This document shows positions 1-6,180 of a stretch of DNA of 30,887 bases, in pieces. The first letter of the stretch is position 1; every line of letters begins with the position of its first letter. The stretch comes from Escherichia coli. GTDB taxonomy: Bacteria; Pseudomonadota; Gammaproteobacteria; Enterobacterales; Enterobacteriaceae. The stretch is taken from assembly GCF_003334405.1 (NCBI RefSeq), contig NZ_QOWM01000028.1. One strand, 5' to 3'. The position numbers and the translations under genes were made by a program. The notes under the pieces were generated by a model, which made no database searches, was not told the origin of the DNA, and was given only the letters and a program-made list of their open reading frames with translations.

Positions 1-57
1 TTTCTCTTCAACCGAACCGGCTGTTTGTGTGAAGTGATTCACATCCGCCGTGTCGAT

Positions 58-115
58 GGAGGCGCATTATAGGGAGTTCTCCGCAGGCCGCAATAGAAAA
101 ATTGCAGAAAAATGA
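58..115 (-). promoter_or_regulatory. rrnE P1: rRNA operon P1-type promoter (rrnE P1-like) with A/T-rich UP element, transcribing leftward out of the window
   Basis: Minus strand reads TTGCGG-(16 nt)-TATAAT followed by GCGCCTCCATCGACACGG (GC-rich discriminator), i.e. the canonical rrn P1 core 'CTCCCTATAATGCGCC'. The -10 is the complement of 66..71, the -35 the complement of 88..93, with an A/T-rich UP-like tract at about 94..115. Divergent from purH as in E. coli. Confidence 0.7.
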
Positions 116-264
116 CTGACTGCTGCATTCCCCAGCAAAAGCCCGCTTTATACCTTTTTACGCACAGAGTTATCCACAATCATCAATGTAATTTCTGTAT
201 TTTGCCCACGGTAACCACAGTCAAAATTGTGATCACCATTGAAAGAGAAAAATTCGCGAGCGTT

Positions 265-280
265 GCGCAAACGTTTTCGT
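265..280 (+). promoter_or_regulatory. PurR operator (pur box) in the purHD control region
   Basis: GCGCAAACGTTTTCGT matches the 16-bp PurR box consensus (AcGcAAACGTTTtCnT) and is followed immediately by TACAAT (281..286), a plausible -10. It lies about 110 bp upstream of the purH ATG. Confidence 0.65.
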
Positions 281-317
281 TACAATGCGGGCGAAAAATA
301 AGGATGCCCCGTTAGGG

Positions 318-355
318 GCGTTAGCTGAGTTTTTCGCGAAAAATTCAGCTAACGC
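318..355. repeat. 38-bp near-perfect palindrome (GCGTTAGCTGAgtttttcgcgaaaaatTCAGCTAACGC) in the purH 5' leader
   Basis: Read directly from the sequence: 11-bp arms GCGTTAGCTGA / TCAGCTAACGC around a 16-nt centre that is itself near-palindromic. It ends 32 bp upstream of the purH ATG. Confidence 0.8.
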
Positions 356-387
356 TCTCTGTAATAGTCAAATCCAGGGGATTTACC

Positions 388-1977
388 ATGCAACAACGTC
401 GTCCAGTCCGCCGCGCTCTGCTCAGTGTTTCTGACAAAGCCGGTATCGTCGAATTCGCCCAGGCACTTTCCGCACGCGGTGTGGAGCTGCTGTCTACAGG
501 GGGCACTGCCCGTCTGTTAGCAGAAAAAGGTCTGCCGGTAACCGAAGTTTCCGATTACACCGGTTTCCCGGAGATGATGGATGGACGCGTGAAGACCCTG
601 CATCCGAAAGTACATGGTGGCATTCTGGGCCGTCGCGGCCAGGACGATGCCATTATGGAAGAACATCAGATCCAGCCTATCGATATGGTGGTTGTTAACC
701 TGTATCCGTTCGCCCAGACCGTGGCCCGTGAAGGTTGCTCGCTGGAAGATGCGGTTGAGAACATCGATATCGGCGGCCCAACGATGGTGCGCTCCGCCGC
801 CAAGAACCATAAAGATGTCGCAATCGTGGTGAAGAGCAGCGACTATGACGCCATTATTAAAGAGATGGATGACAACGAAGGATCGCTGACGCTTGCAACC
901 CGTTTCGACCTCGCCATCAAAGCCTTCGAACACACTGCCGCCTACGACAGCATGATTGCCAACTACTTCGGCAGCATGGTTCCGGCTTACCACGGTGAAA
1001 GCAAAGAAGCCGCCGGTCGCTTCCCACGCACGCTGAACCTGAACTTCATTAAGAAGCTGGATATGCGTTACGGCGAGAACAGCCACCAGCAGGCTGCCTT
1101 CTATATAGAAGAGAATGTGAAAGAAGCCTCCGTTGCTACCGCAACCCAGGTTCAGGGTAAAGCCCTCTCTTATAACAACATCGCCGATACCGATGCGGCG
1201 CTGGAGTGCGTGAAAGAGTTCGCCGAGCCGGCATGTGTGATTGTGAAGCACGCCAACCCTTGCGGCGTGGCTATCGGCAATTCCATTCTTGATGCTTACG
1301 ATCGCGCGTACAAAACCGACCCAACCTCCGCATTCGGCGGCATCATTGCCTTTAACCGCGAGCTGGATGCGGAAACCGCACAGGCCATCATTTCTCGTCA
1401 GTTTGTCGAAGTGATTATTGCGCCGTCCGCCAGCGAAGAAGCCCTGAAAATCACCGCCGCCAAACAGAACGTACGCGTTCTGACCTGCGGTCAGTGGGGC
1501 GAGCGTGTTCCGGGCCTCGATTTCAAACGCGTGAACGGCGGTCTGCTGGTTCAGGATCGTGACCTGGGGATGGTCGGTGCGGAAGAACTGCGCGTGGTGA
1601 CCAAACGTCAGCCGAGCGAACAGGAACTGCGTGATGCGCTGTTCTGCTGGAAGGTGGCGAAGTTTGTGAAATCCAACGCTATCGTCTATGCCAAAAACAA
1701 TATGACTATCGGCATTGGCGCGGGCCAGATGAGCCGCGTGTACTCCGCAAAAATCGCCGGTATTAAAGCGGCCGATGAAGGCCTGGAAGTGAAAGGTTCC
1801 TCGATGGCTTCTGACGCGTTCTTCCCGTTCCGCGACGGTATTGATGCCGCCGCCGCTGCGGGCGTGACCTGCGTAATCCAGCCTGGCGGTTCTATCCGTG
1901 ATGACGAAGTGATTGCCGCCGCCGACGAGCACGGTATTGCGATGCTCTTCACCGACATGCGCCACTTCCGCCATTAA
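388..1977 (+). CDS. purH: Bifunctional AICAR transformylase / IMP cyclohydrolase
   Basis: 529-aa ORF starting [27 protein letters not shown], with MGS-like and AICARFT domains recognisable. Length equals E. coli PurH. purD follows 11 bp downstream. Confidence 0.97.
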
Positions 1978-6043: not shown

Positions 6044-6092
6044 TTTTATCAGCGCTTACCCTGCGCTGTAACACAAAGGCTTAAGTTTCAAT

Positions 6093-6138
6093 GAGTAAAA
6101 ATGACTCGCTACCCGCAGCAGGCGAGTCATTTTTACTC
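6093..6138. promoter_or_regulatory. Perfect 17-bp inverted repeat separated by 12 bp; probable ZraR enhancer (UAS) shared by the divergent zraP and zraSR promoters
   Basis: GAGTAAAAATGACTCGC (6093..6109) and GCGAGTCATTTTTACTC (6122..6138) are exact reverse complements. They sit between two divergent sigma54-type promoters, as expected for an NtrC-family activator site. Confidence 0.65.
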
Positions 6139-6180
6139 GTTTATCATGCCAGATTACCCGTCATATCAGCGTTTCATCGT

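Follow-up and report, generated by a model that had tools for sequence, protein, structure and literature searches.

The purHD operon of Escherichia coli very probably carries in its leader an RNA hairpin, here called P2, that has been kept by selection on the sense strand. The window, that is, the whole stretch of 30,887 nucleotides (nt) of E. coli contig NZ_QOWM01000028.1 that was analysed, contains at 318-355 on the plus strand a 38-nt palindrome, GCGTTAGCTGAGTTTTTCGCGAAAAATTCAGCTAACGC, in which 17 pairs flank a CGCG centre. This palindrome would be the DNA image of the P2 stem-loop in the purHD 5' untranslated leader, with a smaller hairpin, P1, directly before it. About 100 purH leaders were compared overall. 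As a simple hairpin, P2 is a solid finding of this comparison and has notable phylogenetic depth; its function is predicted only.

Pairing, covariation and folding strand of P2

The repeat search returned 318-339 and 334-355 as overlapping 22-nt arms that are 95% complementary. The outer 11-nt arms are perfectly complementary, and the sole non-Watson-Crick position is G329/T344, which becomes a G·U pair in RNA. Drawn as a stem-loop (318-355, plus strand), P2 consists of a sequence-conserved lower stem (318-328/345-355), the G329·U344 wobble, an upper stem (330-334/339-343) and the loop CGCG (335-338). The earlier note had described such a palindrome between the PurR box and the purH ribosome-binding site and had judged its size unlikely to be due to chance. 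Both the element and its placement were confirmed (PurR box at 265-280, palindrome at 318-355, Shine-Dalgarno at 376-381). Chance is likewise a poor explanation: the RNA fold of 290-400 has a z-score of -4.2, none of 200 shuffles was as stable, and the 30.9-kb window holds just one other inverted repeat with arms of at least 19 nt at 95% complementarity or more. The region 150-450 was found in 5420 of 5426 complete E. coli genomes, and in 5333 of these a 71-nt core reaches 99% identity or more. The apparent two matches per genome arise because one palindrome matches on both strands, so the element is single-copy, and with one locus per genome in 5420 genomes it does not behave as a dispersed repeat of the REP/BIME or ERIC kind. 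The single E. coli variant inspected carries C335T in the loop and G302A in the 5' single strand, and its stem is intact. A search of 202 loci with a loose form of the motif returned purH leaders only, plus a chance match. The latter, at about 6.1 kb from the first copy in four loci, was rejected as it is not a hairpin and lies inside a coding region that we read as zraP.

To follow the pairing across species, 58 distinct lower stems were aligned without gaps, 17 nt per end and anchored at the base. In this alignment 88.2% of the cells pair by standard rules, versus 26-41% when the partners are slid by one to three columns. Double-sided compensatory changes are present at 11 of the 17 pairs, and the covariation score was attained by none of 500 shuffles. 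Pair 7 is GC in 28 sequences, CG in 22 and UA in 5; pair 8 can be CG, AU or GC but is mismatched in 31 of the 58. Pairs 12-17 covary freely, and pairs 3-6, 9 and 11 are near-invariant. The same helix was recovered independently by MAFFT and RNAalifold from 24 full Enterobacteriaceae leaders. Compensatory base-pair changes across species are what is looked for in a conserved cis-regulatory RNA in general. An mRNA hairpin was one of the two explanations that the earlier note had offered, together with an alignment of purH upstream regions as the way to separate compensatory change from strict conservation; the alignment supports the hairpin, with compensatory changes over the stem and a lower 11 bp that is also conserved in sequence.

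The wobble pairs tell which strand folds. Read on the purH sense strand, the 58 stems contain 76 G·U cells and 19 A·C cells; in the Enterobacteriaceae alignment the counts are 40 and 0, over four columns, and outside this family the asymmetry is weaker (11 to 6). Transitions in Watson-Crick pairs yield G·U or A·C equally and only an RNA folding from one strand favours G·U, which argues that it is the purH sense strand that folds. The predicted folding energy of the E. coli hairpin is -22.5 kcal/mol for the sense and -18.6 kcal/mol for the antisense strand, and the sense strand is the more stable one in 28 of 35 distinct hairpins.

The leaders came from two scans: a protein-anchored scan that gave the purH loci of 80 species, and a hairpin-blind scan of metagenomes by the PurR-box/-10 pattern that gave 80 more loci with 66 distinct downstream sequences, two of which are not purH. 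The leaders of Enterobacteriaceae, Erwiniaceae, Yersiniaceae and Pectobacteriaceae always hold 5'-GGG-GCGUUA-NN-UGA ... UCA-NN-UAACGC-UCU-3'. Between the arms, neither sequence nor length is fixed, so that the hairpin spans from 38 nt in Escherichia to 102 nt in Rahnella, and the conserved half-elements GCGTTA and TAACGC stay complementary at this variable separation. Loss or degeneration in close relatives, which the earlier note had named as the outcome that would speak against the element, was not observed, and the element is kept in at least four enterobacterial families. In Erwiniaceae and Yersiniaceae (L021-L036, L088, L094 and similar loci) the apex carries an extra sub-hairpin resembling CUCUAUAUAGAG, of the form YUCUNUAUAUAGAR, with a pyrimidine-rich 5' strand, a purine-rich 3' strand and a UAUA tip. 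It is sometimes duplicated (L027, L035) and is lacking in Escherichia. The 38-nt Escherichia form looks like a shortened version of the longer hairpin. One metagenome locus (L156, contig Ga0209371_1006275) keeps P1 and P2 with about 130 nt extra between the hairpin and the ribosome-binding site; it follows from this insertion that the hairpin needs no fixed distance to the Shine-Dalgarno.

Outside Enterobacterales, the purH leaders of Vibrionaceae and Ferrimonas (L049-L060, L070) have a long hairpin of their own, 5'-GGUAUUUACCAAAA ... UUUUGGCAAAUAUC-3', at locus coordinates of about 1300-1500, with a variable apex (43-125 nt). Double-sided changes occur at 8 of its 18 pairs, and 87.8% of its cells pair, versus at most 46% when the partners are slid. 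In 8 of 10 sequences the eighth pair from the basal G-C does not form, being A·C in most of them. Both groups thus have in common a layout of 7 bp, a mismatch-prone pair 8 and a conserved block, and the Vibrionaceae/Ferrimonas hairpin appears analogous to the enterobacterial P2, be it by homology or by convergence. The Aeromonas (L074) and Shewanella (L077) leaders, which stand outside the alignment, also fold into a long hairpin. Pasteurellaceae have short purH leaders without the hairpin.

The purH leader around the hairpin

The purHD operator lies upstream of the palindrome and is not part of the hairpin. This pur box (265-280, plus strand), GCGCAAACGTTTTCGT, is the reverse complement of the purH-purD PurR site defined by chromatin immunoprecipitation, ACGAAAACGTTTGCGC (PMC3159470). 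A PurR box was present in 40 of 51 purH upstream regions scanned, mostly from Enterobacterales. The putative -10 hexamer of the purHD promoter, TACAAT (281-286, plus strand), abuts the box, and a hexamer TACAAT, TAAAAT or TAGAAT directly adjoins it in every leader examined. The order is kept among relatives, with the hairpin downstream of the PurR box and the -10. A simple sigma-70 scan detected no consensus promoter. From the promoter geometry alone, we infer that transcription starts at about position 293; if this start holds, the palindrome would occupy about +26 to +63 of a leader of about 95 nt. P2 ends 21 nt upstream of the Shine-Dalgarno AGGGGA (376-381, plus strand), which is the purH ribosome-binding site. 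The purH coding sequence (388-1977, plus strand, 529 amino acids, ATG at 388), the first gene of purHD, follows according to both the list of open reading frames and the RefSeq annotation. No feature is annotated by RefSeq between the 16S rRNA gene and purH. In the tables of transcription starts and of 3' ends that were searched, including supplements of the E. coli 3'-end map, purH was not found.

P1 is a small G+C hairpin, CCCC-GUUA-GGGG (307-318, plus strand), of -6.8 kcal/mol (RNAfold) that abuts P2 without a spacer. A comparable hairpin stands 0-1 nt from P2 in 51 of 66 distinct contexts. Compensatory variants occur in two loci (CACC/GGUG in L009, CCUC/GAGG in L010), and P1 is weak in an Enterobacter-like clade, with a C·U mismatch in 10 of 24 sequences. 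Immediately 3' of P2 is a pyrimidine tract, UCUCUG (356-361, plus strand), of which the UCU is invariant across families. Its likeness to the start of a boxA and to an anti-Shine-Dalgarno tract is resemblance only, as both failed in tests; a pairing of CUCUG with CAGGG as anti-Shine-Dalgarno was dropped since the A-to-U change in the species with CCUGGGG is uncompensated. Further downstream, a candidate hairpin P3, AAAUCC-AGG-GGAUUU (370-384, plus strand), belongs to the predicted minimum-energy fold and contains the Shine-Dalgarno. It is 100% identical in the 24 Enterobacteriaceae sequences, so that covariation speaks neither for nor against it, and outside this family it is not a hairpin.

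P2 is predicted not to occlude the ribosome-binding site. The opening energy computed for this site is 7.0 kcal/mol in the wild type, 6.8 without P2 and 6.9 without P1 and P2; with one or the other P2 arm disrupted, it is 7.0 and 7.6 kcal/mol.

Two other possible leader elements were rejected. A leader peptide from the AUG at 304 would read MPR-stop, has no usable Shine-Dalgarno spacing and is conserved neither in frame nor in length; by inspection, some Yersinia and Serratia leaders have no AUG at that position. A CsrA site made of AAGGAUG (299-306) and the Shine-Dalgarno lacks its first GGA in the E. coli G302A variant and in Serratia and Yersinia, and support for it was not found in the literature.

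Possible role of P2 and rival explanations

We propose that P2 acts in cis as an autonomous RNA module and not through occlusion of the ribosome-binding site. The lower stem would determine what happens to the transcript, as a sequence-specific site of docking or as a structural element; it may be read by a protein or a ribonuclease or, with lower probability, by a small ligand. With a stability of -22.5 kcal/mol and a place downstream of the 5' end and ahead of the ribosome-binding site, P2 would obstruct 5'-end-dependent access by RNase E and decay, and would add to purHD expression a post-transcriptional layer independent of PurR. Pairs 3-6, 9 and 11 and the flanking GGG/UCU hardly vary, whereas pairs 7 and 12-17 are free to do so, which argues for recognition beyond stability. 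We hold this docking or stability mechanism only tentatively, as somewhat short of an even bet; for the explanation as a whole, a blend of the figure for the hairpin and that for the mechanism, we would put the chances at about even.

Several points weigh against this explanation. The 58 aligned stems are related, so the shuffle statistics overstate their independence. Their 5' boundaries were picked by best pairing, which gives a slight bias toward structure, although they always coincided with the conserved GCGTTA-type motif. The transcription start rests on promoter geometry and on the strand bias of the wobble pairs. The searched literature gives no experiment that ties the hairpin to stability, processing or a binding factor, and the sources searched give no 3' end or RNase III site for it. 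A closing helix that evolves slowly, or an overlapping signal at the level of the DNA, could explain as well why the sequence of the lower stem is conserved.

The hairpin was also compared with catalogued elements. An Rfam 15 cmscan of window positions 1-1200 at E<=10 found neither the ZTP riboswitch (RF01750) nor any cis-regulatory family, the match to mir-725 over 310-368 in that scan being spurious (23.8 bits against a gathering score of 76), and in 20 other gammaproteobacterial purH loci no Rfam family reached its gathering score. A K-turn or box C/D-like element (CUGA...UGAUG) is present in Erwiniaceae only and has the wrong bulge geometry; mimicry of RNase P substrates or tRNA minihelices by the 7-bp stem fails as an RCCA-like tail is lacking; and the arms do not qualify as PurR half-sites as they point outward with variable spacing. 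A minus-strand intrinsic terminator made of the P1 complement and a T-rich tail was flagged by a scan, but relatives do not conserve the tail, and it is the plus strand that the wobble pairs favour.

One alternative to a docking or stability module is a regulated translational switch. The C-run at 307-310 would pair either with the Gs at 315-318, as in P1, or with the Shine-Dalgarno G-run at 377-380, while the Gs at 314-318 may instead pair with the UCU tract at 355-358 and extend P2; a ligand or protein that stabilises this base would free CCCC to sequester the ribosome-binding site, making the leader a purH-specific sensor and a functional analogue of the ZTP riboswitch. The RNAalifold consensus of the 24 Enterobacteriaceae leaders is that very fold (6-9 with 78-81, 13-17 with 56-59), the minimum-energy folds of single sequences alternate between the two states at similar energy, and column 16, which varies between G and U, forms a bulge in the switch fold and a mismatch in P1. 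The most conserved nucleotides (GGG, the P2 base, UCU) are moreover those that would switch, and purH is the main target of ZTP riboswitches in other phyla (PMC10912719). However, neither the long-range helix nor the P2 extension has double-sided covariation, whereas P1 has one compensatory A-U (L009), and any C-run complements any Shine-Dalgarno. Leaders from outside Enterobacteriaceae have a strong P1 (-6 to -10 kcal/mol) and just three Gs in the Shine-Dalgarno, the predicted accessibility of the ribosome-binding site is equal with and without the hairpin, and the leader lacks the conserved unpaired junction nucleotides typical of aptamers and is empty of Rfam matches. We consider such a switch unlikely. 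Equally unlikely in our estimation is a broader proposal in which P1-P2 and GGG/UCU form the sensing core of an uncatalogued purH riboregulator, ancient in Gammaproteobacteria, with a homologous form in Vibrionales beside that of Enterobacterales. A pathway metabolite, for instance a purine nucleotide, a folate or ZMP/AICAR, or else a dedicated protein, possibly PurH itself, would bind at the lower stem and mismatch 8 and switch purHD translation or decay, in place of the ZTP riboswitch absent from these bacteria.

Conditional premature termination, with P2 and its pyrimidine- or U-rich tail as an intrinsic terminator in the leader, is suggested by the U-rich tails of Serratia grimesii (UCUUUUUAUU, L027) and of Vibrio (UUUAUUUUUAAC and UUUCUUUGUUUUAAC, L052 and L070). 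It is very unlikely, as all 83 distinct Enterobacterales leaders have a negative d'Aubenton-Carafa terminator score (-15 to -58, with E. coli at -26), whereas three of four known terminators or attenuators used as controls were positive (trpA t, his and thr at +30 to +40; rrnB T1 at -25 with the boundaries chosen). In E. coli the tail, UCUCUGUAAU, lacks a run of U, a simple terminator scan did not flag the plus strand, no anti-terminator is evident, and, as said, purH is missing from the 3'-end map supplements searched. A Nus-factor site would make a boxA for NusB/NusE of the last two stem nucleotides and the tail (GCUCU...), with the hairpin as boxB; the order of a hairpin followed by GCUCUUUA is the same as in the boxB-boxA of rrn operons. 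Against the consensus GYTCTTTAANA (taken from PMC5725501), the sequences just 3' of the hairpin in Dickeya and Brenneria (L018, L019, L131), GCTCTTTAAAG and GTTCTTTAATG, match at 10 of 11 positions, and those in Serratia and Rahnella at 9. However, a perfect boxA was found in none of about 94 leaders, and GCTCTCTGTAA (window 356-366), as in E. coli and all Enterobacteriaceae, matches at 8 of 11 with C at position 6. The C4T/T6C double mutant of boxA abolishes SuhB recruitment at suhB (PMC5725501), and the E. coli C6 equals one of its two changes. Two of the boxA nucleotides would be locked within the stem, and purH was not found in the supplementary files of that study that were searched; a Nus-factor site is the least probable of the readings considered. 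The same study gives a putative perfect boxA upstream of prsA, the gene of phosphoribosyl pyrophosphate synthetase, in three genera, which hints that Nus factors might touch genes for nucleotide precursors.

Cleavage by RNase III, which would act on the 17-bp duplex stacked coaxially on P1 and reset the 5' end and half-life of purHD, has in its favour a long near-perfect duplex, of 17 bp in E. coli; in a Yersinia (L035) it extends to 28 bp without a mismatch. Internal mismatches occur at pairs 8 and 10 and are similar to internal loops known from some RNase III sites. On the other hand, cleavage would not demand conservation of the lower-stem sequence, and the sole RNase III site in the purH-rrsE intergenic region (PMC5371410, coordinate 4207874) converts to about window position 46, on the rrnE side and roughly 270 nt from the hairpin. 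As purHD is PurR-repressed in rich medium, the missing signal is weak evidence, and we regard this reading as distinctly unlikely without giving the signal much weight. The last alternative is that the palindrome acts as DNA, whether as an operator for a dimeric regulator other than PurR, which was the other explanation in the earlier note, or as a cruciform that serves as a supercoil sink near the strong divergent rrnE promoters. The palindrome looks perfect, has an A+T-rich centre and follows the promoter at a distance of about 30 bp; E. coli, Pantoea and Tatumella have rrn operons placed divergently upstream of purH, and the regulators listed for purHD also include RbsR and PhoP. For RbsR, the consensus (GCGAAACGTTTCGC type) is similar to the PurR box and not to the palindrome. 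A dimer operator is defined by fixed spacing and by conservation of sequence rather than of complementarity, and the reverse was found: the separation of the halves varies by more than 60 bp (hairpins of 38-102 nt), which is incompatible with a dimer contacting both, and the interior alters its sequence yet keeps its complementarity. Together with the G·U bias, the variable length rules out an operator at which a dimer binds with fixed spacing. In a cruciform both strands would have to fold, and the sense-biased wobbles (76:19, and 40:0 in Enterobacteriaceae) argue against it, so that a DNA-level element as a whole is highly improbable.

Neighbouring features and comparison with known systems

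Upstream of purH, the divergent 16S rRNA gene is read by us as rrsE, and the window presumably starts inside the rrnE P1 promoter and leader on the minus strand, where it includes CTCCCTATAATGCGCC. Over window positions 1-110, minus strand, there is a partial, sub-threshold Rfam match (26.9 bits) to the Yersinia small RNA Ysr197, which probably just reflects rrn promoter sequence inside the Ysr197 model. A 16S rRNA gene is divergent upstream of purH in Pantoea and Tatumella as well (L031 and L037, positions 1-880, minus strand), from which it follows that the rrn-purH adjacency is old; most enterobacterial contigs end at 250-650 nt before purH. A perfect DnaA-box-like 9-mer, TTATCCACA, occupies positions 170-178, between the upstream region of rrnE P1 and the purH promoter, and about 40 bp upstream of the PurR box there is a small palindrome, AATTGTGATCACCATT (225-240), with a central GATC (Dam) site. 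The other strong inverted repeat of the window, at 6090-6141, has 20-nt arms that are 95% complementary and 12 nt apart (AATGAGTAAAAATGACTCGC and GCGAGTCATTTTTACTCGTT). We take its position to suggest the control region between zraP and zraSR, with a possible ZraR site.

The purHD operon is a textbook case of regulation by PurR. A leader structure kept throughout Enterobacterales, and apparently Vibrionales, implies a second layer of control at the RNA level. This layer would act on the enzyme that consumes ZMP, a folate-stress signal, and thus on the step that ZTP riboswitches control in many bacteria. If a ligand or protein partner exists, P2 would represent a new regulatory class in the best-studied bacterium; if it is only a stability element, it would be a useful annotation for purH reporters and models of the 5' untranslated region and a candidate for Rfam. 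The hairpin is undescribed in Rfam, in the RefSeq annotation and in the searchable literature, where its sequence is not printed either, the purHD papers of 1989-90, which possibly note a dyad symmetry, lying outside the search. No post-transcriptional control of E. coli purHD is given in a 2024 review on regulation of the purine pathway (PMC10912719) or in a study of the PurR regulon (PMC3159470).

P2 shares traits with several known systems. The ZTP (pfl) riboswitch, RF01750, sits in the leader of the same gene, purH (PMC10912719), but P2 has a two-hairpin layout and no pseudoknotted two-domain aptamer, no conserved junction nucleotides and no Rfam match at E<=10. The pyrBI and pyrE attenuators likewise place a stable hairpin and a pyrimidine-rich tail before a nucleotide-biosynthesis gene, whereas the purH leader fails the terminator score in 83 of 83 cases and has no conserved leader peptide. 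In the boxB-boxA of rrn operons and lambda nut sites and in the suhB boxA, a hairpin is followed by a GCUCU(U)UA-like sequence that Yersiniaceae and Pectobacteriaceae match at 9-10 of 11 positions, but the E. coli purH leader matches at 8 of 11, has a C6 of the disabling type and has the motif partly base-paired. The operator of PurR, a protein of the LacI family, is palindromic DNA too, and the arms CGTTAGC/GCTAACG match PurR half-sites at 6 of 7 positions; those of P2, however, face outward at a variable distance of at least 24 bp. The last likeness is to the ompA-type 5' stem-loops and to rne hp2, the hairpin recognised by RNase E. P2 has no sequence similarity to them and does not stand at the extreme 5' end, as a single strand of about 14 nt (before P1) to about 25 nt (before P2) would precede it. 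As in those systems, it is a cis stem-loop between the 5' end and the ribosome-binding site that is conserved in structure and has a variable apex, and as in rne hp2, a conserved lower part is combined with an internal irregularity, which in P2 is pair 8.

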